64,000 nucleotides of DNA from a virus (Duplodnaviria; Caudoviricetes), in IMG/VR virus record IMGVR_UViG_3300021511_000006, positions 1-64,000 of that record, one strand, 5' to 3'. The notes below the pieces were generated by a model. The model made no database searches. It was not told the DNA's origin and saw only the letters and a program-made list of their open reading frames with translations. Position numbers and translations under genes: made by a program. This document shows, piece after piece, positions 16,716 through 63,464 of this stretch (position 1 is the first letter of the stretch; each line of letters starts with the position of its first letter).

Positions 16716-16740
16716 TAAAAAAATCGTGCGAGTTTAATCG

Positions 16741-16776
16741 GGAGGGTACTAGAACTTTTTAGTACCCTCCTGTTTT
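16741..16776 (+). terminator. Intrinsic terminator
   Basis: Perfect 11-bp stem GGAGGGTACTA/TAGTACCCTCC followed by TGTTTT. Confidence 0.75.
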
Positions 16777-16809
16777 ACGTTATTTTTAGTTCTAAACCTC
16801 CTGAATAAT

Positions 16810-16825
16810 AAGAACAAAATATAAA
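16810..16825 (+). promoter_or_regulatory. Motif L, candidate late promoter
   Basis: AAGAACAAAATATAAA upstream of 16857. Confidence 0.6.
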
Positions 16826-16856
16826 GTAAATCATCACCGTTTATAAGGGATAAAAT

Positions 16857-17546
16857 ATGAAAAAGAAAATTGAGACAATAGAGGTTGTTGCTAAAGACTT
16901 TTATGGGGACAATTGTTTAGATGATTCAATTGGTCGTCGTAATATAGTAAAAAAAGGGAATCCGGAAGGTTATGTTGAAATTTATGAGGTTGATGTTTCT
17001 GGTAATAAAAAATTAATTGGGAAACATAATCTCGTTCTTTATAGAGGAAGAGAACTGTTAGCCCAAAGATTAGTTAATGTAGATAATACAAATGTTATAT
17101 CTACAAAAGATGAGTTTATTAGTTGGTTAGGTCTTGGGGATGGTGGAGTTATTCCAGGAGATCCATTAAATCCTTCACCTCCAACTTTAACAGATACAGA
17201 ATTAGCTTCTCAAATTATGATTACACCAACAGATTCGTCTGCTGCTGATTATCATATTATAGATCCTACTCACCCAGAAGAAGGATATTACAAAATTCCG
17301 TTTGATACAATTGAGTTTGAACAAGACATGCTTAATGATGATAAATGGTTAGTACTTAGAATTACAACTACAATTAGTGCCTACTATGCAAATAATAAAC
17401 AATTAAGCGAAGCAGCATTATTTTCGGCTGCTTCCTCCTTGGGAGGCTACACTGGGCAATTTACAATTTTTTCAAGAGTTACTTTTCCATCAATTGTTAA
17501 AACATCTGATCGAAGACTCATCTTTTCTTGGTTCTTATATATATAA
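16857..17546 (+). CDS. Baseplate / tail-collar-type structural protein
   Basis: HNLV...GLGDGG...SEAALF...FSRVTFPSIVKT pattern typical of myophage tail-collar/baseplate proteins; precedes the sheath gene. Confidence 0.55.
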   Translation: MKKKIETIEVVAKDFYGDNCLDDSIGRRNIVKKGNPEGYVEIYEVDVSGNKKLIGKHNLVLYRGRELLAQRLVNVDNTNVISTKDEFISWLGLGDGGVIPGDPLNPSPPTLTDTELASQIMITPTDSSAADYHIIDPTHPEEGYYKIPFDTIEFEQDMLNDDKWLVLRITTTISAYYANNKQLSEAALFSAASSLGGYTGQFTIFSRVTFPSIVKTSDRRLIFSWFLYI

Positions 17547-50421: not shown

Positions 50422-50423
50422 TG

Positions 50424-50609
50424 TTATATCCCCTTTTCTTTACAGTCTGATTTTAAAGCGTCCTCTAGTTTATCATCCTCAATATAATAAGGATCGCTAT
50501 TCATTCTTAGAACATTCATTATAATTTGAGTTAGTCGAAGATCCGGTGCATCATTCCAGATCTTCTCAACCAACCCTAATATACGTTTAATTCTAGCTGG
50601 ATCTCTCAT
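50424..50609 (-). CDS. Small protein of the MRDPxRI (DUF1040/YihD-like) type
   Basis: MRDPARIKRIL...W...PDLRLTQII. Confidence 0.65.
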   Translation of the reverse strand: MRDPARIKRILGLVEKIWNDAPDLRLTQIIMNVLRMNSDPYYIEDDKLEDALKSDCKEKGI

Positions 50610-53311
50610 GTAATTTTCTCTCCCTTAAGTATTTTATCCATAACTCCGGAATATCTTCCTTCATATAATATTCCTTGAAGAATAGACTTCTTTGGATTTG
50701 AAAATGCCATAGCAAGAATCCAACTTTCTCGGTTAGGTACAGATTGTACAGAGTAGAAATTTGGTATAATTTTTTCTCTATCTTCTATCAGTCTCCATTT
50801 TTTGTAATCTTTCCACATCAATTGTGTAACTACACATTCAAAATGTATGTGATGAATATCTTTATCATATACATCAAATAAAGCATCAACTATTTCGGTA
50901 TATGTTTTTCCTTTAAATTTATGTAATAATTCAGCAACAGATGCAAGATCTCCAATAATATCTCTTTGTTTCATGGAGTTTTCTTTATTTTCTTCTCCCT
51001 TAATTACTGCTGAACCTGAAGTATGAAAAGTTCTTAAAACTAATTGTGTTCCCCTCTCTCCTAATGTTTGAGCAGCAATAATACCAACAAATCGGCTATT
51101 TAAACTTTTATATAAATCTCCATAACACTTTTTACAGAGTCTATCAGATTTACATAAAATAGGACTTCGTATCTGAATTAATTTTCCAATTATATCTTTA
51201 TAATTATCTTGAGTAATTTTATATAGTGATGATTCATCTTCTGAAAGACACCATCTATTTACTAACATATGAGCCTTTCGTTCTGTTTTTACATCGACTT
51301 CTAATAAGTCTGTAGTGCCACAATCATCAAGATCTTGATCAATCTGTAAGTTAGCACATGTAAAAATGAGTTTCCTTGATAGATATCCGCTTGTGCCCGT
51401 ATTTAATGCAACATCTAAGAGACCTTTTCTACATCCATATGTTGAGAAGAAAAATTCTTTTTGATTCAAACCTTCAAGTAAAGAATTTTTAATTGGATGA
51501 TCTAAAATCTCTCCATCAAAGTTTGAAATGAATCCTCTGGATAATACAAGTTGTTTAACTTGATCCCAACTTCCCCTTGCGCCAGATTCTATCATATATG
51601 AATATTTAAATTTATCTCTAAGTTCATGAATCAAACTAGGATCTGAAAATGCAACAATTTGATCTCTTGTTTCCTTATGAGAATAAATATTATCTTTTAT
51701 TTTGGATATCCCTTCAATTTTACAATCTTGTAAAGACATAGTACATCCATATAAAGTTGCAAATTTGAATCCTATCCTTTTAATATTATCAAGAACCTGT
51801 ATAGTTATATCGCTAGAATATTTATCTTTAATATCATTAAGGATTGTAAGAAGTTCTTTATTAGCAACAAGACCTTCAACTATTGGATAATCTTCTGGAA
51901 GTTGTTTGTTAAATTCAGCTTGACCCAATGGAAGGCTTTTATTTTTAAACATAACTGTCTTATCTGAAAAGCTGGGTGATGTTAAATAATAAATTCCTAG
52001 TATTATATCTTGGCTTGGAGTTGTAGTAAGACCTTCATTTGAAGGGCTATTTAAATTAGAAGAAATTAAAATTTTCTTTAAAATCTCTTCTTTAGCTTCA
52101 TTAGTAACCGGAATATAAACTGCCATTTGATCTCCATCAAAATCTGCATTGAATGGAGGGCATGCTAAAGGATGTATTTTGATTACTTGATCTAACGTAA
52201 TCTTAATTTTAAAAGCAAGCATGCTCAATTTATGAAGAGATGGTTGTCTATTTAATATACAACATTCTTCACTTGTTATTTCTTCACAAACTTTTAATAG
52301 AACAGGTGAATAATTATCAATACATTGATCTACAAAATCAATCGCCTTATTAAGAAGTTTAAATTTACCAAGTTGAATGATTCTCTTGGCAATCGGAAGT
52401 TTAAATAATTCAAGTACCATTAAATATGGTAGTTTACACTCATATAGTGAAAGAGTTGGATCTGGAGTAATAACTGCGCGTCCAGAAAAATCAATTCTTT
52501 TACCAAGAATATTCCCTCTAATTAATCCTTCTTTTTTTGCCATCTTTTCCAAAATTCTGGTATACAACTCACTCACATCTTTTTGTAGTTGTTTGAAATA
52601 AGTATAGTAAAGAGCTTTATCTCGATGAATATCAATGATCGTATCTTTCATCGCTTCTTTCTTGGTGAGTATTTGGACATAGTAACGATTGATTTTGTCC
52701 ATTAGTTGTTTTGCTTCTCCAGAACTTTTTGATGTTGGTCTAAGATCAGGTGGGAGAACAATAATTTCGTCTATGAGCAGACTATTAATATTATTTAAAA
52801 TAATTTGCCATTCAGCAATTCCTTCTTCAATCATTTCTGTTGCAATGTTTTTAACAAGAACTTCAATAGCTTCTGCACGTTCCCATGTTTCTACTCCTTC
52901 TGGGATTTGTTCGGGTATAGGTGTAACAACAAGTTCATCTCCAGTTTTATAGAGAACGCTTTGATCATTTTTCATAAGATTATCAATTGCTTTTTTCAAA
53001 GTCTTCCCACCCAGATCTATCAGTAGATCATAAAATATTGGATTTACAACTGGTATTGGTATTTTGATTTTTGCAAATCTTTTTCTTCGAGCATCACTAT
53101 TTATAATATCAACTCCACAGTCATCACATTTGCCTCCAGATCTTGATACTCCATGATATGTACCACATTGACAAGTATAATTCCTCATTGGACCAAATAT
53201 TTGTTCAGAAAATAATCCAAATGGGTGAAACTTTTTCTTTCCAAATGTTTTTAGAGACGTCACTTCGTCTAAGGGTTCACAAAATGTTTCATAATCTAAT
53301 AACTTAGGCAT
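50606..53311 (-). CDS. rpoC: Phage multisubunit RNA polymerase, beta-prime-like (catalytic) subunit
   Basis: NADFDGDQMA active site; N-terminal CQCG...CDDC zinc finger; GKRIDFSGRAVI; LNRQPSLH; bridge helix RKGLLDVALNTGTSGYLSRKL; trigger loop LRTFH. Confidence 0.95.
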   Translation of the reverse strand: MPKLLDYETFCEPLDEVTSLKTFGKKKFHPFGLFSEQIFGPMRNYTCQCGTYHGVSRSGGKCDDCGVDIINSDARRKRFAKIKIPIPVVNPIFYDLLIDLGGKTLKKAIDNLMKNDQSVLYKTGDELVVTPIPEQIPEGVETWERAEAIEVLVKNIATEMIEEGIAEWQIILNNINSLLIDEIIVLPPDLRPTSKSSGEAKQLMDKINRYYVQILTKKEAMKDTIIDIHRDKALYYTYFKQLQKDVSELYTRILEKMAKKEGLIRGNILGKRIDFSGRAVITPDPTLSLYECKLPYLMVLELFKLPIAKRIIQLGKFKLLNKAIDFVDQCIDNYSPVLLKVCEEITSEECCILNRQPSLHKLSMLAFKIKITLDQVIKIHPLACPPFNADFDGDQMAVYIPVTNEAKEEILKKILISSNLNSPSNEGLTTTPSQDIILGIYYLTSPSFSDKTVMFKNKSLPLGQAEFNKQLPEDYPIVEGLVANKELLTILNDIKDKYSSDITIQVLDNIKRIGFKFATLYGCTMSLQDCKIEGISKIKDNIYSHKETRDQIVAFSDPSLIHELRDKFKYSYMIESGARGSWDQVKQLVLSRGFISNFDGEILDHPIKNSLLEGLNQKEFFFSTYGCRKGLLDVALNTGTSGYLSRKLIFTCANLQIDQDLDDCGTTDLLEVDVKTERKAHMLVNRWCLSEDESSLYKITQDNYKDIIGKLIQIRSPILCKSDRLCKKCYGDLYKSLNSRFVGIIAAQTLGERGTQLVLRTFHTSGSAVIKGEENKENSMKQRDIIGDLASVAELLHKFKGKTYTEIVDALFDVYDKDIHHIHFECVVTQLMWKDYKKWRLIEDREKIIPNFYSVQSVPNRESWILAMAFSNPKKSILQGILYEGRYSGVMDKILKGEKIT

Positions 53312-53551: not shown

Positions 53552-53747
53552 CTGACTCTCTTTCATTTATTTTTTGTTTTAAATTACCAATGCCTTTATC
53601 AACTAAGTCTTCTGCTGTTTGTGCAGTTCTATTAACCATCAAATTAAAAAATGATCTAACAGCTTTTTTACCATTACTTACAAGATCATCAATAATTGTT
53701 TCGACCTGATTTGACATTTCTTTATCACTCAATCGTTTTTCTTCCAT
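53529..53747 (-). CDS. Small amphipathic helical hypothetical protein
   Basis: 72 aa; overlaps both neighbours. Confidence 0.55.
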   Translation of the reverse strand: MEEKRLSDKEMSNQVETIIDDLVSNGKKAVRSFFNLMVNRTAQTAEDLVDKGIGNLKQKINERESDGQDKKV

Positions 53748-54091
53748 GTCCCTAGTACCCCTTGTTTTTTATATTTTATTTCGCCCCAAGGTGTAAAGTA
53801 ACAGTTGTCTAAGTTAAAGCAAGATAACATACTAATTATCATTGAGTTTGAGTTTTTTGTTAGTTCATGCTGTCTCAAACTATTTGGAATACAAAACTCT
53901 CCAGTCCTTGGAATTGCATTTGGATGTGGATTGTTTAAAATTACCATGTCGATTTTACCATCAACAGTTTTAACTATATAATTTTTAATCTCGAATTTTT
54001 TTGCTAATTTCGTAATTTGGTATAATTCATTTTTATAAATTAATTTTCTTGGCATAATAAATTCTCTTACTTCAACATTTAGTATTTCCAT
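53729..54091 (-). CDS. Small E2/UBC-like protein
   Basis: HPNAIPRTGEFC matches the UBC HPN-x(7-8)-C catalytic signature; TAATG-coupled to the ThiF-like gene. Confidence 0.55.
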   Translation of the reverse strand: MEILNVEVREFIMPRKLIYKNELYQITKLAKKFEIKNYIVKTVDGKIDMVILNNPHPNAIPRTGEFCIPNSLRQHELTKNSNSMIISMLSCFNLDNCYFTPWGEIKYKKQGVLGTWKKND

Positions 54092-54951
54092 TATGCAGCT
54101 CCTGTTTCAGGAATTAATTCAATATAAGTATTATTACCTTCATCAAAAACTGATACTACAAAATTATTAAAATCTTCTTGACAACTTACAATAGATGTCA
54201 ATACTGAAATTAAGTCTTTGCTATTCTTTAAAGCATTCACAGGAATTACTTTTTCAGAAATTGGATAAACTTTACTTCCAAGAAATAAAGTTAATTCTTT
54301 GTTTTTATTTATATCTAAAATTGGGACGATCTTATCCGGCAGATTTACAAATTTATCTTCGCCGATTACATTATCATAAATAACATCATAACAATTATTC
54401 TCAAAATATTTAACATAATCAAGTTCATATTTTTCGACAGTTTGAATTTCTATAAGAGCTGCAATTGAAACGTTATCAATCATCATTGAAATAATTGATG
54501 CTGCATGTCTTAAATCATTCTTTGTCAATTCCGTAATGTATTTTCCAGCTTGTTGTTTTTTATAAGTAACATTCTTTCTAAAATCAGCCATCAAGTATCT
54601 TGATGATATATAAAATCTTGCGTCAATTTCAGACTTTCGATCATATGTAAAATCTCGACAATCAATTACCAAATCTTCTTTTGGAAGTTTCGTAACACCT
54701 TCAATATATTCAGTTTGAAACGCCCAGATTTCTATATTTGGATTTTGATCCATTAAAATATCTTTTAAAGCTTCAACTTTTGGAATACCTACATCAATCT
54801 GTCTGTAGATAGAATTTTTTAAATTCTTCTTCTTAACTATATCGTGGTCTATTATGACTAGCTTTTCGGTGTTCTCTAAATTAGAGATTGCTTCTGCTGT
54901 GAACCCTCCAAGGGTTCCTAATCCAATAATTACAACGTTTTTAAATACCAC
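54091..54951 (-). CDS. ThiF/E1-like adenylating protein 2
   Basis: IIGLGTLGG, IDHDIV..KNL, DVGIPKVEALK and VIDCRD. Confidence 0.8.
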   Translation of the reverse strand: MVFKNVVIIGLGTLGGFTAEAISNLENTEKLVIIDHDIVKKKNLKNSIYRQIDVGIPKVEALKDILMDQNPNIEIWAFQTEYIEGVTKLPKEDLVIDCRDFTYDRKSEIDARFYISSRYLMADFRKNVTYKKQQAGKYITELTKNDLRHAASIISMMIDNVSIAALIEIQTVEKYELDYVKYFENNCYDVIYDNVIGEDKFVNLPDKIVPILDINKNKELTLFLGSKVYPISEKVIPVNALKNSKDLISVLTSIVSCQEDFNNFVVSVFDEGNNTYIELIPETGAA

Positions 54952-54983
54952 GTTTTATAGTCTCCTTTTCAATCATTATTTTT

Positions 54984-55009
54984 TGGGGGGAGTTAAAAGC
55001 ATCCCCCCA
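54984..55009. other. G/C-run hairpin without U-tract
   Basis: TGGGGGGA/TCCCCCCA stem just after the 55016 stop. Confidence 0.6.
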
Positions 55010-55015
55010 TAAGAA

Positions 55016-55603
55016 TTAAGCCAATCTTGAGTCTAACTCCTCACTATGATTTTCAATTGGTTCTGTAAATATAATTGCTCTTCTTATTAGTTCTTGTTCG
55101 TCATCTCCAACTGGGGTAGGTCTATAATGAGATTTATATTTATATAGCGAGTTGGCTAATTTGACAGGATAACTCACAGGAATCTCATATGAATATTTTT
55201 TATATCCTCTGGTTGTTCTGACAGTTATAGGCATGCTCGGATCTATTCGTTTGAGTTCTTCTGCAATTTCATTCCTGAAATGGAGCTCATCGTCATTTGA
55301 TTTTATCTTTACACCACGTTTTACGAGCTCGTCATCACGACCAGAACCATTTATTTTCCAGTTGTTCTCTTTTCTGACTAGAGCTTTAATAGCACGACCA
55401 AATGCTTTGTTCTTTCCCTCAGATTTAGAAAATGTATCTAAGAGAGAACATATAGATACTCCTCGTGCTTCAATTCGCTGTTTTGAGGAGTTTATAAAAA
55501 CACAAGTTGTAAATGCATTATTTACAACTGGACTGTTGACAAAGTAAAATGAAATTTTATCAACGTCATTGTCTTGTAAGATTTTTTGTATGTCTTCATT
55601 CAT
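55016..55603 (-). CDS. Hypothetical protein inside the ubiquitin-like cassette
   Basis: ARGVSICSLLDTFSKSEGKNKAFGRA, a pattern common in small phage proteins. Confidence 0.65.
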   Translation of the reverse strand: MNEDIQKILQDNDVDKISFYFVNSPVVNNAFTTCVFINSSKQRIEARGVSICSLLDTFSKSEGKNKAFGRAIKALVRKENNWKINGSGRDDELVKRGVKIKSNDDELHFRNEIAEELKRIDPSMPITVRTTRGYKKYSYEIPVSYPVKLANSLYKYKSHYRPTPVGDDEQELIRRAIIFTEPIENHSEELDSRLA

Positions 55604-55624
55604 GGTTTCATTCCTTTATCTGGT

Positions 55625-55644
55625 GGGGGGTCCGAAGACCCCCC
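55625..55644 (-). other. Stable cUUCGg tetraloop hairpin 3' of the Ubl gene, without U-tract
   Basis: Minus strand GGGGGGTC-TTCG-GACCCCCC. Confidence 0.7.
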
Positions 55645-55654
55645 AACAGTTAAG

Positions 55655-56122
55655 TTAGCAACCCTTCTTGCCTGCTGGTTTCAGGAATTCCAGATTGTCA
55701 CCGTTTTTCAGTACGTAATCAGCATCGACTGCTTTACCATTTACCAGACCGGTAGACAGACGATCAACGTTCAGTACTTCTCTCAGGAAGTCCCCAACAT
55801 CTTTTACTGTCTTCCCTGCGACTGGGAAATTACCCGAAGATGCACCACATGATACATGAATGGTAGTAGTAGCTCTGCTACCGAAAGGTGCTCCTGGTTT
55901 GGTCAGCGTACTTTGCCCGGAAAATTCCAGTCCGGTCAGTTTACCACCTGCAGTTTTAGCAATGGTTGCTCCTTTTTTACCGTACTGAGCCATAATGGCG
56001 TTAACAACATCGTCCTTCGGTTTCTTGGTAACACCGACGATACCCAGTTCATCAACACACATTCTTTTCAGATCTTTTGAAGTTTTTGCCTCTAAGAAAT
56101 CTCGATTAAAACTTTTACCCAT
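55655..56122 (-). CDS. Ubiquitin-like (beta-grasp) protein with N-terminal Rho-N/HeH-like domain, ending GKKG-C
   Basis: IHVSCGA...GKTVKDV...LNV...VNG...DYVLKNGDNLEFLKPAGKKGC; located between E1 genes. Confidence 0.8.
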   Translation of the reverse strand: MGKSFNRDFLEAKTSKDLKRMCVDELGIVGVTKKPKDDVVNAIMAQYGKKGATIAKTAGGKLTGLEFSGQSTLTKPGAPFGSRATTTIHVSCGASSGNFPVAGKTVKDVGDFLREVLNVDRLSTGLVNGKAVDADYVLKNGDNLEFLKPAGKKGC

Positions 56123-56137
56123 GATAATAAGTCTCCT

Positions 56138-56821
56138 TCATTTCACTATTCGGATTTTTGCGTCTGTAGTCATACTAAGCATATCAAAGTAGATTTCAGA
56201 CCGTTCATACTGTTCTTTTATAACCACGTTATAAAAAGCCCAGCACATCAATGTTGCTACCCCCAAATTTGTAAAATACAACTGAGGGTCTGATTGTGAA
56301 AGTTCTTCACAACTCATTTCTTCGGGTAACTTATCGTTAGGGTTTGCAATTTCCGGATGGTAAGCACATAAGTCCGGAGTTAAATCTTTTCCTTCCTTCC
56401 GGACATAAATCTGTACATTACCATCTGTAAATTCGTTCCCACCAGAGATTAAAATAACATCTTGTAAAGTTTTACAGTAATTAGAAACGATCATTCTGGT
56501 TTTGTGATTATCAACACATAGAAATACAATATCGCCTTCTCTTATAGTTTCCACAATATTTTTTTCGTTTACGAAGGCTTCATAAGAATCAAACCGTAGC
56601 TCACTAAATTTTATCTGAAGTTCAGTGCCTTTAATATCGGCTTTATTCCCCATGCGGGTAAACTCTTGCCTCTCATAGTTTTTATGCTCATATTCATCTC
56701 CATCTACTAATAGAATATCTGCGGCTAAATCCTTTGAATAATTCAGAAATCTGCATATTCTTTCAGAGAGAATAGAACCTACTCCCCCAAGTCCAATAAT
56801 AGTTATAGGTAATCTAGTCAC
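56138..56821 (-). CDS. ThiF/E1-like activating enzyme 1 (PRTRC ThiF-like)
   Basis: IIGLGGVG, VDGD...NYERQ, CVDNHKTR, SGGN and SCEEL...PQLYFTN with a candidate catalytic Cys. Confidence 0.9.
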   Translation of the reverse strand: MTRLPITIIGLGGVGSILSERICRFLNYSKDLAADILLVDGDEYEHKNYERQEFTRMGNKADIKGTELQIKFSELRFDSYEAFVNEKNIVETIREGDIVFLCVDNHKTRMIVSNYCKTLQDVILISGGNEFTDGNVQIYVRKEGKDLTPDLCAYHPEIANPNDKLPEEMSCEELSQSDPQLYFTNLGVATLMCWAFYNVVIKEQYERSEIYFDMLSMTTDAKIRIVK

Positions 56822-58370
56822 TACTTCTCTCCCTTGAAAATACTCGTCTAAACATGTTTTTTAATGACGCGTTAGGTTTCTCAGGAATTGGAGTGTAACT
56901 GGATCCTGGTTCTTTTATTTTTTCAATAGTTTCTTCCTTGGCTGCTAAGTCTAGTGCAGCAATATTAGCTTCTTCTTTTTCGGAATCTAGAAATGTTCCT
57001 GCATCTTTTTCAAGTTGTTCTTCTAATAATTCTTTTGAAGAAACTTCTGGTATAAATTCGCTATAGCAAAAAGGGCATATTGCGTCTTCTTGAACTGCAC
57101 GAAAGCTGCTATTACATGATGGACATACTACGTATTCAGATTTAGGTTGATCTTTTTCAAATAAGTGATCAAATTCATCAGATGGAGCATAACTGTTAAG
57201 TAGAGTATCATCATCCACAAGAATTAGGTGTTCATCAGTTAAACAATTAGAACATATGGTTGTACCTTCAAGACCTTCTTCTTTAACCAATTCACCACAT
57301 TGATTACATTGGTATATATCCTCTGTGAAGTCTTCCTTCTCTATCTCATTTGTTAGTTTACACTCTCTATGAACACATGTTGCGCAAGGAACAAAGTCAC
57401 CCTCTGGCGTATGTGGAGGAAATTTAAGAGGTGATTTATTACCAGGCCCAACATTTAATGGAGATACTCGTGTACCAGTTACATGACGTACGATACCTGT
57501 TCGTTTCCAGGCATCTGAGTTATAATGTTGTCCCCAACCAGCATATCCTCGGGAACCATAACCATAACCATATTGATGTCCCCAACTCTTATATGTGTAA
57601 ACTCCTTTGCTTACCATCTTCATCCATTTTTTGTTAAAGACTCGATCACTTGGAGATACATTCACATCATAGCGCCTATCAAACTTTCGATAGCTATAAA
57701 ATTTTGGTGTTGCTGTTGCGTCTTCAACTAGTTTGCCATCTTGTACTTTATAGATTGTTCTTACAGCTTTATTATCGACTTCATTTGTTTCTGCCATAAG
57801 AATTAATTTGTCAATATATTCATCTGGATCAACCATAACTCTATGGCCATTTGCTACAATTGATGAAGAGATGCTTGGATACTCTTCATCAAGATCGCCC
57901 AATGTAATATGAAGACCGTCAAAGTGCTCTTCATCATCATCATCAACACCAGAATGAAATGCTGACATATTCCCATGACTATGAATAGTACCGATCATTG
58001 TCATTCCTTCAATAGTAATTCCTTTATCGTAGTCACAGGATGCACCTGCAACTTTTTGTACCGGCGGAATGATTTTATATTTTCCTGTTTCTTCATTATA
58101 AAACAGGAGCACAATAGATTCTGATCTATATTCTTCATATACTGCTTTAAAAAATCCCATGACTTTAGCAATCCATTTACCAGGAATTTTAGTAATATGC
58201 ATTTTAGCCATAGTAGTAACACTATTTAGAATAGAGATATTTTTAACGGGCGCAAGACTTTCCATGACCCCAAGTTTTTTCTTTAGATACACACCTTCTT
58301 TTGCAATAATATAAAATACATCATCCTTAGGCATTTCATTTTGACCATCATTTAGGATTACTTTGAACAT
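56814..58370 (-). CDS. JAB/MPN+ metalloprotease with C-terminal zinc fingers
   Basis: E...GTIHSHGNMSAFHSGVD JAMM motif; several CxxC pairs in the C-terminal half. Confidence 0.88.
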   Translation of the reverse strand: MFKVILNDGQNEMPKDDVFYIIAKEGVYLKKKLGVMESLAPVKNISILNSVTTMAKMHITKIPGKWIAKVMGFFKAVYEEYRSESIVLLFYNEETGKYKIIPPVQKVAGASCDYDKGITIEGMTMIGTIHSHGNMSAFHSGVDDDDEEHFDGLHITLGDLDEEYPSISSSIVANGHRVMVDPDEYIDKLILMAETNEVDNKAVRTIYKVQDGKLVEDATATPKFYSYRKFDRRYDVNVSPSDRVFNKKWMKMVSKGVYTYKSWGHQYGYGYGSRGYAGWGQHYNSDAWKRTGIVRHVTGTRVSPLNVGPGNKSPLKFPPHTPEGDFVPCATCVHRECKLTNEIEKEDFTEDIYQCNQCGELVKEEGLEGTTICSNCLTDEHLILVDDDTLLNSYAPSDEFDHLFEKDQPKSEYVVCPSCNSSFRAVQEDAICPFCYSEFIPEVSSKELLEEQLEKDAGTFLDSEKEEANIAALDLAAKEETIEKIKEPGSSYTPIPEKPNASLKNMFRRVFSRERSSD

Positions 58371-60933
58371 TTACTATACTCCTCTCTTCGTTTATAAGTC
58401 TTAATTCAGATGCTTCACATGTAAAGAAGTGACCATGTAAATTTGGCCACGCTCTAACTATACCCGCTTCATTTTGAATTTTTGGTCCAATTCTTGGATT
58501 CGGAATACAATCTAATATAGAATTAGCTGTAATATATCTATCTAAACTATAATAATCAGCATATGATGTAAAGTATGCAAAATCTAATACTTTAAGACCA
58601 CCTACTCCATTAGTAAAGACAAACCATCCCTTTCGATTACTATACTCATTAATACCTTGAATAATATCACCAGGTTGATACTTAATTTTTGATACATCAA
58701 TTGAAGCATGCTTTAATGATGGCCATCTTTTTGACTTAATTGTAGTTTTTTGGAATTTTGTTAATACGTCGCTGTACCATAAAGTACAACAATTTGAGCA
58801 CAGAACAAGGGGTTCTGGTCCTCCCGTATCAGTTATAAATCCAATAATAATATTTATATCTTTCTTTGGGAATTGTGAAATGCTGGCTTCTTTAGCTTTG
58901 ATCTTTGTTCCTGCAATCAATTTACCAAATTTATTTGTAATCTTTCTTATTCTACCAACATAAATGATTCCATTTGCTCCATCAACATATCTTTCTTGAT
59001 GTAGAGTCCCTTCTTTATCAGCTAATATGAAAAATATATCACCAATAGCTGAGTCGAATTTAAACCCTTGAATTACTTTGACTGACAACATATTAACTGG
59101 ATTATGCCAATCTGAAACAACTACTTTATCTCCTATAGTAAATTCAATATCCATATCAAAACTCTGGATACGAAATTTATCTTCCCCCAACATATATTTT
59201 TTTATTTCTGGAGGAATTGGTTTAATAAGTCTAGTTCTGTTTCCTTCAAATATAACGCCAGCAGGAGAACCAAACACACTATTATTTAATAATTTTGTCT
59301 CATTTATATCTTTTATAGCTAGCATTTTTCGACCCACTCTAAATACTGGTGGTAGAGGTTTAAGTTTATCAATTTCATATAGACTTTTAGCTCGTTTTGC
59401 TGCTGATGAGTTTAAGGTAAGATTATATGATCTTATACTTTGATTAACATGTTTCATTTCAATATGTAATTGATTTCTACTGGTAGAAATTTGATTAAAT
59501 TTAACAACGACACCATTTTGAAACGGAACGTTTGCAATAGTTGGTACATAGACATATCGTTTGTTCTTTTTCAACATAATATTTTCATATTTTGGTTTTG
59601 ACGTATCAAATATCTCTCCCTCAGTATTTTCCAAAATATAAAATCCATCTCCGAATCTACCTTCATGAAATCCATCTGCAGATTTACGAACAAAGGAAAC
59701 CCTTTTATATGTAATGCCCCCGATGGCATTTTTCATAATTAGAATATCACCTTCTTTAATCTTTACTCCATTTTTCAGAATTCCCGTTTCTTCAAATCTG
59801 AGTTTCTTTGTTTCTTTAAGGAGATATTTTGTAAACATTTTGGTTTTCTTAAATATAATAAGTCTTCCATCATCTCGTTCAACTCTTATATATTTTACAT
59901 CTCCACTATCCATGAAGCTAATAAGTGAATTAATATAACAAAGAGATTTACCATTTTTAATATAAAAAGGATCTCCAACATGAACATAAAAAGTTTCATT
60001 TAAATATACGCCCGATGCAACATCATAAAATAAACTAAATTTCTTTCTAGATCTTGGAGTAGGTTTTTCATCCTTGCCTGTACTTAAAGGTTGACTAAAC
60101 ATACTAGCAAGGCTGTGATATTGAACATCATTTTGTTTTGATATGCTATAAGTTCGTTTTACTTCTTCTATTGCTTGTCCTATATTCATAGGAATTTTAA
60201 CCCAATCAACATTATAAATAAACATTGGATTTAATTGTGACAATGCTTGCCACTCCATATAAGAATTAACCCCAGCAATTTTTGAATATGAGTTATAGTT
60301 ATACATAAAGTCAGTATTAAATTCAGATCCCCAAAAGACATTGATTGCTTTTTCTACTGTTGAATTTAATGATTGTGTCCGACCATCTGCTCTATCTCCA
60401 AAACAAATATACTGATTATCAGCTATATTTAGTAATGGTATTTTAAGCAAGTAATCAGCTAACCCCGAGAGTCTTGCAATCCTAAGATATGCTTGCCCAC
60501 CAGATATATCATAATAATCTGATATATATAGAAGAAATATAACATACGGAAATGCCAATGTAAATTGCCTTGGACCTCCCTTCTCAGCGAAGTTTTTCTT
60601 ATATTTGTATTCTTCTAATTTTCCTTCTGCTTTTAATTTATCAACTTCAGCATGAAAATGCATATTAATGCTGACAGTTCTAAATGCCGGAGGTTCTTCA
60701 ACAACAATAATATGACCTTTGTTTACTTTTTCCATATATCTACAATTTGGTGGAATAACTACTGGTGTTTCGCTACCAAATTCCAGACTTATACGTCTTA
60801 GATAGTCAGGTGTTAATAACACTTTTTTATTAATTTTTGGGGTTGATTCCCCCTTCATTGATTTATCATATTCAGAAGAATAAAGATGTGTATATTTCTG
60901 ATTAATTCGTATTTCATTTTGTAAATCGAGCAT
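58348..60933 (-). CDS. Prokaryotic E2-like (Prok-E2 family D-like) domain fused to a long C-terminal region
   Basis: LAFPYVIF...PLLNI...YICFG...FWGSEFNTD pattern with candidate catalytic Cys; adjacent to JAB, E1 and Ubl. Confidence 0.7.
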   Translation of the reverse strand: MLDLQNEIRINQKYTHLYSSEYDKSMKGESTPKINKKVLLTPDYLRRISLEFGSETPVVIPPNCRYMEKVNKGHIIVVEEPPAFRTVSINMHFHAEVDKLKAEGKLEEYKYKKNFAEKGGPRQFTLAFPYVIFLLYISDYYDISGGQAYLRIARLSGLADYLLKIPLLNIADNQYICFGDRADGRTQSLNSTVEKAINVFWGSEFNTDFMYNYNSYSKIAGVNSYMEWQALSQLNPMFIYNVDWVKIPMNIGQAIEEVKRTYSISKQNDVQYHSLASMFSQPLSTGKDEKPTPRSRKKFSLFYDVASGVYLNETFYVHVGDPFYIKNGKSLCYINSLISFMDSGDVKYIRVERDDGRLIIFKKTKMFTKYLLKETKKLRFEETGILKNGVKIKEGDILIMKNAIGGITYKRVSFVRKSADGFHEGRFGDGFYILENTEGEIFDTSKPKYENIMLKKNKRYVYVPTIANVPFQNGVVVKFNQISTSRNQLHIEMKHVNQSIRSYNLTLNSSAAKRAKSLYEIDKLKPLPPVFRVGRKMLAIKDINETKLLNNSVFGSPAGVIFEGNRTRLIKPIPPEIKKYMLGEDKFRIQSFDMDIEFTIGDKVVVSDWHNPVNMLSVKVIQGFKFDSAIGDIFFILADKEGTLHQERYVDGANGIIYVGRIRKITNKFGKLIAGTKIKAKEASISQFPKKDINIIIGFITDTGGPEPLVLCSNCCTLWYSDVLTKFQKTTIKSKRWPSLKHASIDVSKIKYQPGDIIQGINEYSNRKGWFVFTNGVGGLKVLDFAYFTSYADYYSLDRYITANSILDCIPNPRIGPKIQNEAGIVRAWPNLHGHFFTCEASELRLINEERSIVNVQSNPK

Positions 60934-61311
60934 TTATTCACCCCTTAAAAATTTATACTGTTTAGCATATCCAGTTAGTATTTGCTCTGGTCTATGATCA
61001 TTAATTTCCCAAACTCTTTGCCTCTTTATTGATGGACTCTCTGGATTCTTTTGCAGTTCTTTTTCACTTGTTATAAATAGAACTGCTAGATATACATCTT
61101 CACTTTCACGTTCTAATGATAAGAATGAAATTTCTCCTTGAGTCCGACCTGGTACTTCCAGTGTAATAAATATATTTGGTCCTTTTGGAAGTATTGTTAT
61201 ATGCTCAATGTTGCCCGTTTCTTGCTCAAATATTTGATCGCATAATATTCTGATTTTTTCAAGTACATCATCACTTTTGATTTCTGCAAGAAGTTTCTTT
61301 AAGATACCCAC
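60934..61311 (-). CDS. Hypothetical protein
   Basis: 125 aa; GTG start with AAAGGAG Shine-Dalgarno. Confidence 0.6.
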   Translation of the reverse strand: MGILKKLLAEIKSDDVLEKIRILCDQIFEQETGNIEHITILPKGPNIFITLEVPGRTQGEISFLSLERESEDVYLAVLFITSEKELQKNPESPSIKRQRVWEINDHRPEQILTGYAKQYKFLRGE

Positions 61312-61325
61312 TTATAAGTTCTCCT

Positions 61326-61652
61326 TTACGGTTGTTTCTTTGTATAATATCTTCTCTCTTTAGTATCCATCCATTCAATCCGATCAAATGGAACTGACCT
61401 CCAACCTTTCATATTCAGATCATAAACATGCATAATTTTATTTTTCTGAATAAGTTTCAGGATTTTTTCAATGTTTACAGATTTTGGATGGTCTCTTTTT
61501 GGAATTTGTTTAAAATCCAAAGTACACTTCATGATACGATTCGAACCATCTTTCTTTGTAAATCTTATAATTACTTGCTTCTCATCATATACTTTTTTCC
61601 AGAACTGTATGGCACTTACAATTATATTAGTATCTAATTCTTTTTCTGCCAT
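61326..61652 (-). CDS. WYL_2 (DUF2693)-like SH3-fold protein
   Basis: FTKKDG...MKCTL...VYDL...GWRS. Confidence 0.75.
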   Translation of the reverse strand: MAEKELDTNIIVSAIQFWKKVYDEKQVIIRFTKKDGSNRIMKCTLDFKQIPKRDHPKSVNIEKILKLIQKNKIMHVYDLNMKGWRSVPFDRIEWMDTKERRYYTKKQP

Positions 61653-61655
61653 AGT

Positions 61656-62702
61656 TTAATCCTCCCGTTTATCTGAGTGAACTAGTGTGCCCACTTCCTT
61701 ATTTGTTCTATCAAAATATTGACTCATCATTAAGCATGAATGATTACAGAGGTCACAAAGACGCTTTTTATCTGTTCTTATTCCAGTTAATACATCACTG
61801 GACAAAAGTTGTGGATATGCTGAATCGAATAGATTTTTTATGGTGTTATATGGAGTTATTACTCCTTTAATTCTTAAACATAATCTTATTGTTCCATCAG
61901 AGTCAATTGTTAAGTTATGTATACCATCCTCAAGCTCGCAGTCAAAATTTGATGGTAATGTATCAAACATTCTTGGAATTAAAATATCTTTCATATGAAC
62001 TAACAATGAATGGTCGTGCATAATATCAAGCAACTGTCCTGCTAAACTTAATGTTGGTTGAACTAAAAGATTCTTATCCCTAATATTTGAAAAATCGTAA
62101 TAGATGTTTTTTGTAATATCTACAAATGTAATATCGCTATATATTTCTTCCTTACTTAAATTACAGATAAGTTGGTGTAAGAAATGTTGATTATGTTTCA
62201 TAACTGTTATTTCAGCTACAACATCTTTAACCAACCCTGCTGCTTGAAGTTCTTTTAATCTTTGTAATCCTTCAATACTTTTTCTGACTCGATCTTTGTT
62301 GAGTTCAGGCTCGTTAAAAATAGGATCAACAGAACTTGTAAAACCTTCTATATGACCTACTTTATTAAATAGTTTTATCAATGCAGGTTGAACTTCAGGT
62401 GTGTTATTACTGATTATTGTATAATATATTTCATTATCATTACAATAATTAATAATGTCTGCAAGGTCTGGTCTTAATAATGGCTCGCCTCCATAAAAGA
62501 TATTGAAGACATTTGGATTATGTATTTTTAATTTTCCTAATGTTTCAATAACAACTTCAGTTGGCATTTCGTTTTTGATATAATGTTTCATATCAGGATA
62601 GCAAGAAGGTTTATTTTCATAGTTTCGAACTATACCACAGTAATCACATTTCAAATTGCACTTCCTTGTGAGAAGCCAATTTACAATTCTAACTTGACTC
62701 AT
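61656..62702 (-). CDS. Radical SAM enzyme with Cys-rich (SPASM/twitch-like) C-terminus
   Basis: CNLKCDYC, GGEPLL, IISN, C...DSDGTIRLC and CDLCNHSC; start MSQVRIV after a GGAG Shine-Dalgarno. Confidence 0.9.
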   Translation of the reverse strand: MSQVRIVNWLLTRKCNLKCDYCGIVRNYENKPSCYPDMKHYIKNEMPTEVVIETLGKLKIHNPNVFNIFYGGEPLLRPDLADIINYCNDNEIYYTIISNNTPEVQPALIKLFNKVGHIEGFTSSVDPIFNEPELNKDRVRKSIEGLQRLKELQAAGLVKDVVAEITVMKHNQHFLHQLICNLSKEEIYSDITFVDITKNIYYDFSNIRDKNLLVQPTLSLAGQLLDIMHDHSLLVHMKDILIPRMFDTLPSNFDCELEDGIHNLTIDSDGTIRLCLRIKGVITPYNTIKNLFDSAYPQLLSSDVLTGIRTDKKRLCDLCNHSCLMMSQYFDRTNKEVGTLVHSDKRED

Positions 62703-62703
62703 A

Positions 62704-63084
62704 TTAATCTCCAGTTTCAAGTAATATCGTTCCGTCATATTCTTCTATAATATCACGAAATCTGTCTATTCGATAACAGTCATTTCTGTCTATTCTAGCA
62801 TAAGCGATAAACTTACCCCTATCTAATATCTCAGCAGCTTCTTTATAACATATTTTATCCATATTATAAAAATCGCTAGGAACTCCTCTTGCTTTTGCAA
62901 TCCAATCGTTTCTTCCTGCTTCGGTAAAATTGATAAGATTTTTTTTATTCTTGAAGAATCTAAAAGATTCATCATGATGGAATTCGAATTTCTTTTGTAT
63001 ATCTTTCCTCAATGTTTTGTTGCCTAGTTCAATAATGAACATTGTGGACGAGCTATTTGTTATAAAATCAAGATTTATTTTCAT
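62704..63084 (-). CDS. TNSSS-motif protein 2 (MKINLDFITNSSSTMF)
   Basis: N-terminal motif; immediately upstream of the radical SAM gene. Confidence 0.75.
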   Translation of the reverse strand: MKINLDFITNSSSTMFIIELGNKTLRKDIQKKFEFHHDESFRFFKNKKNLINFTEAGRNDWIAKARGVPSDFYNMDKICYKEAAEILDRGKFIAYARIDRNDCYRIDRFRDIIEEYDGTILLETGD

Positions 63085-63464
63085 TGATTTTCTACCTTCA
63101 CTACTAATTTTTTAAGCTCCCTTAAGCTTATTGGAGAAACTGTGGTTGCACCCTCTCCATCAACATCAATCGCTTTTAAAATTAAATCATCTTTTCTTAA
63201 GATATCAAATAAAATTAAAGAGTCCCACCCATACGGACCAAGCATAATTTCTTTTCCATCTTTAAGAAGTTTTCCCTCTTTAATTATCTCGTTTAATGTA
63301 CATTCAATTTCTTCATTACTTGGCTTTTCAACTTCTATATAATCTTTATATTCTTGTGAATGTCTAATTCTATTTATTTCGATATTATAGTCTTCTGGTA
63401 TAAAGATTATAAAAGCAGAAGATGAACTATTTGTTATAAAATCCATTTTAATTTTCATAATCAT
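63081..63464 (-). CDS. TNSSS-motif protein 3 (MKIKMDFITNSSSSAF)
   Basis: N-terminal motif; tandem with protein 2. Confidence 0.75.
   Translation of the reverse strand: MIMKIKMDFITNSSSSAFIIFIPEDYNIEINRIRHSQEYKDYIEVEKPSNEEIECTLNEIIKEGKLLKDGKEIMLGPYGWDSLILFDILRKDDLILKAIDVDGEGATTVSPISLRELKKLVVKVENQ

Follow-up and report, generated by a model that had tools for sequence, protein, structure and literature searches.

In this work we have analysed a 64,000-nucleotide stretch of viral DNA (positions 1 to 64,000 of IMG/VR record IMGVR_UViG_3300021511_000006), which we call the window, and in it a block of seven consecutive genes on the minus strand (53729-60933). The replicon is that of a tailed phage and encodes a tail sheath, a baseplate, a tape-measure protein and a large terminase. 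The phage is an uncultured giant (jumbo) tailed phage with hundreds of relatives that have the same conserved gene set beside RNA polymerase genes; here the block is placed between recombination and radical-SAM genes on one side and RNA polymerase genes on the other, with a radical SAM gene, conserved at that place in related loci, three genes upstream. In the order of transcription the block encodes a long E2 (E2f), a JAB/JAMM protease, a compact E1 (E1a), a ubiquitin-like (Ubl) precursor, the protein p195, a second ThiF-like protein (E1b) and a small E2 (p120), and all of these except p195 correspond to parts of a Ubl conjugation system. Overlaps of 23 nt (E2f/JAB), 8 nt (JAB/E1a) and 1 nt (E1b/p120) join neighbouring genes, the start codon of p120 overlapping the stop codon of E1b. 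A sequence-only reading of the stretch had proposed consecutive, partly overlapping minus-strand genes here, and all of them are in place; the six genes that it described stand, and the seventh inside the same interval, p195, it had left undescribed. It had also suggested looking for synteny in other phage contigs, and the block was indeed syntenic in every related contig examined. Since it is syntenic in six IMG/VR contigs at 40-90% identity and is also retained in a locus whose E2f is only about 26% identical, its composition is not due to chance. Within the lineage E2f diverges down to 22-26% identity, and the content and position of the block stay fixed.

The first gene encodes E2f (861 aa; 58348..60933, minus strand), which belongs to a family of 1025 cluster representatives, mostly of 820-950 aa. 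The N-terminal part of E2f is a UBC-like domain, and an array of small beta-barrels comes after it. The E2-D-like domain with a YICFG motif that had been recognized earlier is present: E2f contains QYICFG and matches Pfam Prok-E2_D weakly (E 3.7e-4, 20.7 bits, under the cut-off of 25), and six of seven E2f orthologues match this profile as well. In the AF2 model (pLDDT 93.8) the UBC-like domain, about residues 56-230 (60244..60768), resembles UbcH5B (8v0d_A; VIA Z 4.8 over 117 aa, rmsd 4.9) and UbcH5c (4r8p_L; Z 4.7). Because structural scores of about 4.8-5.0, as found for both E2 domains of the block, lie in the range that VIA calls common, we rest the E2 assignment on fold, motif and context combined. 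Asn169 (60427-60429) and the candidate catalytic Cys177 (60403-60405) are invariant in all 109 E2f relatives and stand 8 residues apart. An Asn eight residues upstream of the Cys is the canonical UBC spacing. No conserved His was found downstream of Cys177 among the relatives. The motif was aligned by hhalign with that of PRTRC_B (pLA4 protein B) over N...C (E 0.026), and tblastn links the domain to a stand-alone 373-aa E2 of a compact bacterial cassette (E 7e-16). The tandem SH3/Tudor/KOW/BAH-like barrels extend over about residues 300-740 (58714..60036). Their top Foldseek matches are the KOW arrays of SPT5 (E ~1e-5), and with VIA residues 375-443 were BAH-like (Z 5.7), residues 583-666 Tudor/KOW/CarD-like (Z 5-5.8) and residues 667-739 SH3-like (Z 5), all scores of about 5-5.8 that the tool again calls common. 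We presume that the barrels form a substrate-binding module. UBE2O, a eukaryotic E2/E3 hybrid, similarly combines a UBC domain and tandem SH3-like substrate-binding barrels in one polypeptide, and its SH3-like domain matches residues 595-665 of E2f with Z 4.2, a likeness of architecture in a very common small fold. However, the domain order is reversed, with the UBC domain N-terminal in E2f, and the two proteins have no sequence relationship.

The JAB/JAMM metalloprotease (518 aa; 56814..58370, minus strand) has an intact JAMM motif, Glu84...His130-x-His132-x7-Ser140-x2-Asp143 (57942-58121), so that the HSH...S..D protease expected at this place is confirmed. These five residues are invariant in seven orthologues and are kept in two distant loci, L007 and L009. 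The protein matches Prok-JAB with E 3e-5, below the curated cut-off, and PRTRC_A with E 3.9e-12 (46.1 bits, cut-off 101.8), and tblastn relates it to the plasmid PRTRC protein A (E 1e-12). Its C-terminal half is variable and contains Cys-x2-Cys pairs (about 57066-57386). The next protein, E1a (227 aa; 56138..56821, minus strand), is a compact ThiF-type E1 whose match to Pfam ThiF (E 1e-16, 61 bits) is above the cut-off of 28.1, whereas that to PRTRC_ThiF reaches 35.5 bits against a cut-off of 144.75. UBA5 is its nearest solved relative. The motifs GxGxxG, DGD, NYERQ and VDNH are invariant, and the cysteine of the SCEE motif noted before is indeed there as Cys171 (MSCEEL; 56309-56311), a candidate catalytic residue conserved in L007 and L009, which Cys152 is not. 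Judged by its sequence, E1a has the features that characterize an E1: an adenylation domain with motifs for nucleotide binding and, after the Rossmann fold, a conserved Cys.

The Ubl precursor (155 aa; 55655..56122, minus strand) is predicted from profile matches to consist of an N-terminal Rho_N/HeH-like segment, a linker and a C-terminal beta-grasp-type domain. The match to Pfam TGS (23.5 bits) exceeds the cut-off of 22.2, those to ThiS, Rho_N and MoaD are weak, and a profile search against the PDB found nothing relevant. Of the earlier description as a beta-grasp protein ending in GKKG-C, the tail is established, and the fold is a prediction from these profile matches. The C-terminus here is GKKGC, with Gly154 (55661-55663) capped by Cys155 (55658-55660). 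In 119 of 120 cluster representatives the tail is PAGxKG, either free or with one capping residue: it is followed by Cys in 81, by nothing in 35 and by N, Y or F in three, and one representative had no match. A Ubl that is matured by a protease would be expected to show just such a pattern. The gene also has the highest GC content (44%) and GC3 (0.36, about 3 sd above the mean) among the 58 ORFs of the window. The HeH/Rho_N-like segment together with the most biased gene composition in the window therefore suggests an abundant modifier, which may bind nucleic acid. Directly after the Ubl stop codon there is a GC-rich hairpin, GGGGGGUC-UUCG-GACCCCCC (55625..55644, minus strand); for a 51-nt segment including it the folding energy is -24 kcal/mol (z -4.3), and two related loci (L005 and L006) have a hairpin at the same position, followed by a T-run.

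The protein p195 (195 aa; 55016..55603, minus strand) had no family match in profile searches. Its gene is flanked by two G6/C6 hairpins, the second of which lies on its downstream flank (54985-55008), and it is missing from three related loci (L005, L006 and L007); p195 is an optional insert and probably does not belong to the machinery. The second ThiF predicted for this interval follows as E1b (286 aa; 54091..54951, minus strand), with a match to Pfam ThiF (E 4e-15, 56 bits) that spans positions 22-128 of the 238 in the profile, so that only the N-terminal half of the domain is recognisable. Its nearest solved relatives are MoeB, ThiF and MccB, with PaaA among the best, and its Rossmann half matches PADLOC models of Cap2-type E1-E2 proteins (E down to 4e-11). 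E1b retains the GxGxxG, DxD, Lys and DxxD motifs; its NxxRQ motif carries a four-residue insertion, and its only invariant Cys is that of a DCRD motif, leaving no conserved catalytic Cys. The C-terminal domain showed no detectable similarity to a Ubl or to any solved chain and ends in ETGAA (54094-54108); ETGAA or DTGAA forms the very C-terminus in 117 of 120 cluster representatives and also in the distant L007. The last protein, p120 (120 aa; 53729..54091, minus strand), is a minimal UBC-like E2 according to its AF2 model (pLDDT 92.3) and its HPN/Cys motif. The top 14 VIA matches were all E2 enzymes, as were most of the next 16, the best being 1yrv_A (Z 5.0 over 94 aa, rmsd 4.2, again in the common range), and the scores were 4.1 with BubB and 3.1 with Cap2. 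The best PDB profile match is an E2, aligned at the HPN..C motif with E 0.36. An HPN...C protein had been foreseen here, and HPN (53918-53926) and Cys67 (53891-53893) occur in all 120 homologues; the protein has an invariant PHPN...G.FCIP. Both E2 candidates thus combine a UBC-like predicted fold with an invariant Cys. The idea of a doubled E1/E2 set stands insofar as a second ThiF-like and a second E2-like gene are present; it is not a simple duplication, the two E2s being of different types and the second ThiF having no conserved Cys. The block is organised as a conserved four-gene core (E2f, JAB, E1a and Ubl), closed by the hairpin, after which come E1b and p120, an add-on to the core that is apparently co-transcribed with the RNA polymerase genes. 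In one locus, L028, the long E2f, JAB, E1a and Ubl are present with no adjacent E1b or p120.

The closest named relative of this system is the plasmid PRTRC cassette (NCBIfam TIGR03734-03742), which we take to be the type 6d operon described by Iyer, Burroughs and Aravind in 2006 (PMC1779556); sequence comparison detected homology but not membership. The order E2 (B)-JAB (A)-ThiF at the pLA4 locus (L011) equals that of E2f-JAB-E1a, the phage JAB has an extra N-terminal region as PRTRC_A does, the E2, aligned at P-L-L-N...C-x-G, has no HPN His, the phage Ubl ends in G-x-K-G where PRTRC_C (pLA4 protein C) ends in GTKG, and the E1 carries no rhodanese fusion. However, the matches to Prok-E2_D, Prok-JAB, PRTRC_A and PRTRC_ThiF are all under the curated cut-offs, those to the PRTRC models by a wide margin, and neither E2f nor the Ubl matched an NCBIfam model of proteins B and C. 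ParB and other PRTRC plasmid genes had been said to be absent from the window, and we agree: pLA4 ParB gave one spurious 43-aa match (E 0.31) in a tblastn search of the whole window, which also has none of the proteins D, E and F. PRTRC cassettes are carried by plasmids and ICEs, whereas this one is carried by a lytic-type jumbo phage. Beta-barrels add about 600 aa to the phage E2f, Zn-ribbon-like Cys pairs extend the JAB and an N-terminal HeH segment the Ubl, the Ubl gene comes after E1 instead of upstream, and the second E1-like/E2 pair is added. A stand-alone E2-JAB-E1-Ubl core was also found in at least 20 MAG loci. Compact cassettes of this order, which equals that of the phage core, occur in bacterial MAGs (L014-L022, L031, L035, L042), and AAA+-Ubl-E2-JAB-E1 cassettes in Planctomycetota (L023, L024, L026, L027, L030, L033, L039, L041, L045 and others). 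In both, E1a is 36-54% identical, the JAB, the Ubl and the N-terminal domain of the E2 are detectably homologous, and the Ubl tail is xxG-x-KG. Their E2, of only 240-370 aa, lacks the barrels of the phage protein, and they have no E1b, no p120 and no RNA polymerase neighbourhood; those of Planctomycetota add a proteasome-ATPase-like AAA+ protein, which is absent from the phage window.

We propose, with a probability of roughly 75%, that the block is a ubiquitin-like protein-conjugation system owned by the phage. That the phage itself carries such machinery was the central point of the sequence-only reading, and the tailed-phage replicon and the motifs, folds and profile matches of the parts support it. 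In the pathway that we envisage, the JAMM protease would cut the single capping residue Cys155 off the Ubl precursor and expose Gly154, which E1a would adenylate with ATP, holding the Ubl as a thioester on Cys171. The Ubl would then be transferred to Cys177 of E2f, whose SH3/Tudor/KOW-like C-terminal barrels may choose the target, so that E2f, like UBE2O, would be an E2/E3 hybrid with no need for a separate E3. The JAB protease probably also strips conjugates. As a classical HPN-Cys minimal E2, p120 could be a second outlet for activated Ubl, and the cysteine-less E1b probably recruits or serves this translationally coupled partner.

More than one role is conceivable for E1b. Could the two ThiF-type proteins be the subunits of one heterodimeric E1, as in the eukaryotic NAE1-UBA3 or SAE1-SAE2? 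E1a would then be the active adenylating and thioester subunit and E1b a silent one whose C-terminal domain docks p120, giving one cascade with two E2s instead of two branches. Eukaryotic E1s recruit the E2 via a C-terminal ubiquitin-fold domain, and the missing Cys, the disrupted NxxRQ, the half-recognisable ThiF domain and the coupling to p120 all agree with a silent docking subunit. However, the relatives of E1a in the compact cassettes do without any E1b, L028 has neither E1b nor p120 next to its core genes, a hairpin separates the core from E1b, and docking gives no account of the invariant ETGAA end; we regard the heterodimer as possible but somewhat doubtful. Or is E1b itself the substrate, with its ETGAA tail trimmed to the terminal Gly, adenylated and passed to Cys67 of p120 for attachment of E1b, or of its C-terminal domain, to a target? 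In type II CBASS, Cap2 comparably attaches the C-terminus of the CD-NTase, and the near-universal position of ETGAA/DTGAA at the very end, the retained motifs GxGxxG, DxD, Lys and DxxD, the pairing of E1b with an E2 of its own and the similarity to MccB and PaaA, two E1-like enzymes whose substrates are the C-termini of peptides, would suit this role. Against it, the C-terminal domain of E1b has no similarity to Ubls, and we find the idea unlikely.

The sequence-only reading had suggested that the cassette may tag host or phage proteins, or decoy or undo host Ubl defence. Perhaps the cassette serves mainly to neutralise the Ubl immunity of the host. Phages are known carriers of counter-defence genes, and this one might oppose Bil, type II CBASS (Cap2/Cap3) or Bub by stripping conjugates, by decoying E1 or E2 or by tagging defence proteins. 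The match of E1b to Cap2-type models points the same way, as does the anti-phage activity of host Ubl systems (PMC10557695, PMC10097602, PMC11601596). However, anti-defence loci are typically variable, whereas this block keeps its position and its genes throughout a lineage with a strongly diverged E2f, and a full activation-and-transfer chain exceeds the needs of deconjugation, which makes a mainly counter-defensive role decidedly unlikely. The strict retention of the block throughout a broad lineage of phages suggests that it serves a core function during the infection cycle and is not a variable counter-defence locus. The phage system shares with Bil (BilABCD) and with Cap2/Cap3 of type II CBASS an E1, an E2, a JAB peptidase, a C-terminal Gly-type substrate and Cys thioester chemistry (PMC10557695, PMC10097602), and p120 is a classical HPN-Cys E2 with weak structural similarity to Cap2, but those systems are host-encoded defences and this one is phage-encoded and lineage-conserved. 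Membership of type II CBASS was rejected: Cap2 is an E2-E1 fusion, whereas the phage E1 and E2 are separate genes, and among the seven proteins there was no match to CD-NTase or effector PADLOC models, the matches being generic ones to the E1 region. In Bub operons Ser stands in for the E2 Cys (oxyester chemistry), the peptidase-E1 fusion has no Cys and a serine protease, BubE, is present (PMC11601596). Membership of Bub was likewise rejected, as both phage E2s have an invariant Cys, the JAMM peptidase is separate and E1a keeps Cys171; the likeness of p120 to BubB is structural only.

Sulfur carriers are also trimmed by JAB-type proteases, QbsD acting on QbsE and Mec+ on CysO, and the Gly-Cys tail of the Ubl, in need of such trimming, is like those of known carrier precursors. 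A sulfur-carrier pathway, in which a ThiS/MoaD-type Ubl trimmed by JAB would be adenylated by the ThiF proteins and thiocarboxylated, its sulfur being used for cofactor, nucleic-acid or peptide modification with the nearby radical SAM enzyme, fits the weak ThiS/MoaD matches and the Gly-Cys tail of the Ubl, the best matches of the E1 proteins to ThiF/MoeB models and the conserved radical SAM gene, but is highly improbable: the set includes two different E2-like proteins, both of them conserved and both with an invariant Cys, whereas sulfur-carrier systems are not known to have an E2, profile searches with the seven proteins matched no rhodanese or cysteine-desulfurase family, and the closest relatives are E2-JAB-E1-Ubl cassettes of the conjugation type, adjoined in Planctomycetota by a proteasome-type AAA+ ATPase. 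The two conserved E2-like genes and the lack of a rhodanese or desulfurase among the seven proteins also set the block apart from the ThiS/MoaD-ThiF/MoeB systems.

If the phage owns a conjugation system, what could it modify? We speculate, as a long shot, that the virus uses its Ubl to control transcription or the nucleoid: the Tudor/KOW/CarD-like barrels of E2f would dock RNA polymerase, of the host or of the phage, or DNA-bound proteins, to which the abundant HeH-bearing Ubl would be attached, and E1b-p120, sharing a transcript with the phage genes for beta' and beta, would be a second branch in which E1b itself is activated or conjugated. If this were true, the Planctomycetota cassettes beside a proteasome-type AAA+ ATPase would hint at an undescribed bacterial tag-and-unfold pathway ancestral to the phage system.

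The established Ubl/JAB pair of phages is formed by the tail-assembly proteins I and K of lambda and T1 (PMC1779556). They resemble the present system in that the phage encodes a JAB peptidase and, next to it, a beta-grasp protein with a Gly at the C-terminus; however, they lack E1 and E2, are sited in the tail module and do not serve conjugation, whereas the cassette described here has the full enzyme chain.

Seven adjacent genes on the minus strand fill positions 53729-60933 of the window, which agrees with the consecutive arrangement described in the sequence-only reading. They encode E2f, a UBC-like and beta-barrel protein (58348-60933, 861 aa), the JAMM protease JAB (56814-58370, 518 aa), the ThiF-type E1 E1a (56138-56821, 227 aa), the ubiquitin-like protein Ubl (55655-56122, 155 aa), the optional p195 (55016-55603, 195 aa), the second ThiF-like protein E1b (54091-54951, 286 aa) and the minimal E2 p120 (53729-54091, 120 aa). 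Overlaps join E2f to JAB (23 nt), JAB to E1a (8 nt) and E1b to p120 (1 nt). The machinery is indeed carried by a tailed phage, as had been proposed, since the window also encodes a tail sheath, a baseplate wedge, a tape-measure-like protein and a large terminase. Unsplit RNA polymerase beta' and beta genes lie directly downstream of the cassette. Both subunits are short (47425-53311; beta 998 aa, beta' 901 aa). Among cultured phages their nearest relatives are in Rhizobium jumbo phages (Kleczkowskaviridae), whose beta' subunits share about 27% identity, and no Ubl cassette was found beside beta' in those phages. Directly upstream of E2f, a radical SAM enzyme (SPASM/twitch-like), the WYL_2-domain protein p108 and a 125-aa protein occupy 60934-63464; this trio is also constant at the eight phage-type comparison loci (L001-L007 and L009), and Mre11/Rad50-like genes lie farther upstream.

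E2f, used as a query against IMG/VR, gave six contigs, including one of 223 kb, which share 40-90% identity and an identical gene order: radical SAM, WYL_2 protein, p125, E2f, JAB, E1a, Ubl, (p195), E1b, p120, two small ORFs, beta', beta. The synteny proposed as a check on the earlier reading thus holds in these six contigs, and the order is retained even at a locus whose E2f is just about 26% identical. Two MAG contigs with archaeal or bacterial labels are of the same phage type. Full phage synteny was seen inside MAGs labelled Thermoplasmatales archaeon, uncultured bacterium and Candidatus Pacearchaeota (loci L012 and L013, protein P0005), and these labels probably reflect errors of binning and not the host. 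Among 1.84 billion cluster representatives, a profile search found 1025 E2f relatives (238 below 1e-30), mostly of 820-950 aa, and word-indexed searches gave 161 relatives of p120, 452 of E1b and 601 of Ubl, on contigs of up to 310 kb. Neither blastn in distant mode with the 7.2-kb block nor tblastn with E2f found a match in 50,697 phage records, and no cultured phage within that collection has the cassette. Unnamed proteins of uncultured phages with similar structures are present in BFVD. The complete set belongs to the virus and is conserved, fixed in its arrangement, throughout a jumbo-phage lineage that is uncultured and very large.

The AF2 model of E2f, based on an alignment of 109 diverse relatives, has a pLDDT of 93.8, and residues 56-230 align with UbcH5B/c with Z values of 4.8 and 4.7 over 117 and 116 residues. 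Asn169 and Cys177 are present in 109/109 sequences and lie eight residues apart, which is the spacing of canonical UBC enzymes. Together with the predicted UBC-like domain, this invariant pair supports the E2 fusion claimed earlier. Six of seven E2f orthologues match Prok-E2_D (Pfam) below the family cut-off, hhalign places the P-L-L-N...C-F-G of E2f on the P-I-L-N...C-W-G of plasmid PRTRC protein B (E 0.026), and in a compact cassette a stand-alone E2 of 373 aa aligns with residues 8-260 of E2f (E 7e-16). The His of the HPN motif is replaced in E2f, and the E2 of operon type 6d likewise lacks it (Iyer et al., PMC1779556). Over the remaining 600 residues the model shows small beta-barrels in a row, which resemble BAH, Tudor, KOW and SH3 domains at Z values of about 5-5.8, indicative of the fold class only. 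The best Foldseek matches are SPT5 KOW arrays, and an SH3-like domain of UBE2O aligns as well. Could the barrels bind RNA polymerase? The polymerase genes close by make this tempting, but we did not count the matches to SPT5 in Foldseek, or those to the RNAP-binding barrels of CarD, NusG and UvrD/PcrA in the structural comparison tool VIA, as evidence for such binding, because a Z of about 5 is typical of any SH3-like barrel. Between residues 688 and 814 (window 58489-58870) there is a near-invariant polar set, D702 (in a D-T-G motif), S713, N714, T717, Q753, D756 and R814, which suggests another binding or catalytic site in the C-terminal third; no fold match accounts for this set. The orthologue on the 223-kb contig stops five codons earlier than the others (L003:12578-12580), and the extreme C-terminus of E2f is therefore dispensable.

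The protease and the first E1 were both recognised correctly from the sequence. The JAMM motif of JAB is complete (Glu84, His130, His132, Ser140, Asp143) and invariant in near and distant orthologues. JAB matches PRTRC protein A, and its C-terminal half is variable with several Cys-x2-Cys pairs. The closest plasmid relatives of its N-terminal domain are on Bacillales megaplasmids (30% identity, E 1e-11), as on the Metabacillus plasmid pB218 (L010:6525-9441), where the JAB-like gene adjoins a ThiF gene and unannotated neighbours, none of them bearing the PRTRC name. E1a is a compact ThiF-type E1 (Pfam, 61 bits) whose nearest solved relative is UBA5. Its nucleotide-binding motifs are invariant, and Cys171, the Cys of the reported SCEE motif (MSCEEL), is kept in distant loci; Cys152 is not. 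PDB profile searches were uninformative for JAB and for Ubl. Ubl scores above the Pfam TGS cut-off, with weak ThiS, MoaD and Rho_N matches, and among 120 cluster representatives its PAGxKG tail is followed by Cys in 81, by nothing in 35 and by N, Y or F in 3, one giving no match. Thus, of the beta-grasp modifier ending in GKKG-C, the tail with a free or one-residue-capped end stood in 119/120, while a beta-grasp fold is suggested by the TGS and the weaker ThiS and MoaD matches. Such a tail pattern would mark a modifier that is trimmed to expose its terminal Gly. The Ubl gene has the highest GC and GC3 among the 58 ORFs of the window, which would fit high expression, though amino-acid composition may contribute.

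The p120 model has a pLDDT of 92.3, and its fold search listed E2 enzymes at all of the first 14 places and at most of the following 16, the bacterial BubB and Cap2 included; the best match has Z 5.0 over 94 residues. In 120/120 homologues HPN is followed, nine residues on, by a Cys, so that the HPN...C protein of the earlier reading is indeed E2-like in its predicted fold, from which the N-terminal helix and the C-terminal helices of a full UBC domain are missing. PDB profile searches with 7 and 62 sequences were uninformative, their sole pointer being a non-significant E2 match at HPN..C. The distant locus L007 has two tandem p120-like genes (16506-17331), one with HPN...Cys and one with HPN and no Cys; the latter would be a UEV-like inactive E2 variant. 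The ThiF match of E1b is confined to the Rossmann half at the N-terminus (positions 22-128 of the 238 in the profile). E1b retains GxGxxG, DxD, Lys and DxxD, but its NxxRQ motif is interrupted by four extra residues; its single conserved Cys is in DCRD, and it ends in ETGAA or DTGAA in 117/120 representatives and also in L007. Its C-terminal 90 residues gave no match in a PDB profile search or in hhalign against Ubl, and the idea that they are a fused copy of Ubl was dropped as unsupported. The doubled E1/E2 set claimed earlier was therefore only partly upheld: a second ThiF/E2 pair is present, but E1b lacks a conserved Cys outside DCRD, and p120 gave no significant hhalign match to E2f or to PRTRC_B, so the two E2s did not arise by recent duplication. 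E1b could be an adaptor of p120, a silent E1 partner or, via its ETGAA tail, a substrate itself.

The cassette looks like two transcription units, the core E2f-JAB-E1a-Ubl and a second one which starts with E1b-p120 and continues into the RNA polymerase genes. This appearance rests on a stable GC-rich hairpin which follows the Ubl stop codon, without a U-tract in the window and with a T-run in L005 and L006. A consensus promoter and terminator scan missed this hairpin and found sites no more numerous than in shuffled sequence. In the window, p195 is bracketed by two G6...C6 hairpins (54985-55644), and it has no family match. L005, L006 and L007 lack p195 and have one hairpin with a T-run after the Ubl gene; p195 is therefore an insert, seemingly into the terminator region.

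From the established chemistry of E1/E2/JAMM systems, JAB would trim the cap residue of Ubl, and E1a would adenylate Gly154 and then form a thioester on Cys171. Ubl would be transferred to Cys177 of E2f, with the target chosen by the barrel array and the mark possibly reversed by JAB; p120 would be a second E2 outlet. The cassette may serve counter-defence alone, but this would be a poor fit to its strict conservation among deeply diverged relatives. The conservation of two E2s, and the lack of a sulfur-donor family match among the cassette proteins (0/7), make a sulfur-carrier pathway unlikely. Of the named systems, the PRTRC cassette of plasmids and ICEs is the closest; it has in common with the phage cassette its gene order (B-A-ThiF), its type of JAB, an E2 in which the His of HPN is missing and a Ubl tail of the form G-x-K-G. 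What speaks against placing the phage cassette in that system is that ParB is absent from the window, as noted earlier, and that all scores fall far short of the family cut-offs. Nor is it an operon of the Bil, CBASS or Bub type. To our knowledge, Ubl conjugation in bacteria has been characterised solely in anti-phage defences that the host encodes (type II CBASS and Bil, with Bub as a proposed case), and we know of no function for the older plasmid PRTRC cassette. We found no description in the literature of a phage-encoded E1/E2/JAB/Ubl cassette. An E2 fused to a long substrate-binding-type array is without described counterpart, as are what appear to be a Ubl with a nucleic-acid-binding-type head and a further E1-like/E2 pair attached to the RNA polymerase operon of the phage. 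If active, the cassette would mean that phages use protein tagging for their own infection cycle or for host reprogramming, and it would offer a handle on the role of PRTRC-type systems. Its parts are small, soluble-looking and clearly delimited, so that their biochemistry is directly approachable in E. coli.

Using E1a as query, we found relatives with 36-54% identity at 34 MAG loci, in compact E2-JAB-E1-Ubl or AAA+-Ubl-E2-JAB-E1 cassettes, the latter in Planctomycetota and some other phyla. None of the 34 has E1b or p120, and L028, with a long E2f, JAB, E1a and Ubl, likewise has neither adjacent, a distribution which fits the two-unit picture. The AAA+ protein of these MAGs resembles the proteasome ATPase (model pup_AAA, E 1e-32), with CDC48 and PAN also matched; the phage window has no counterpart. 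The AAA+-Ubl-E2-JAB-E1 cassette looks like a cellular tag-and-unfold module, of which we found no description. One AAA+-linked locus lies in a 4.8-Mb contig. The AAA+ ATPase gene directly precedes Ubl-E2-JAB-E1 at L030:3763-8696 and also at L023, L024, L026, L027, L032, L033, L037, L039-L041, L043 and L045.
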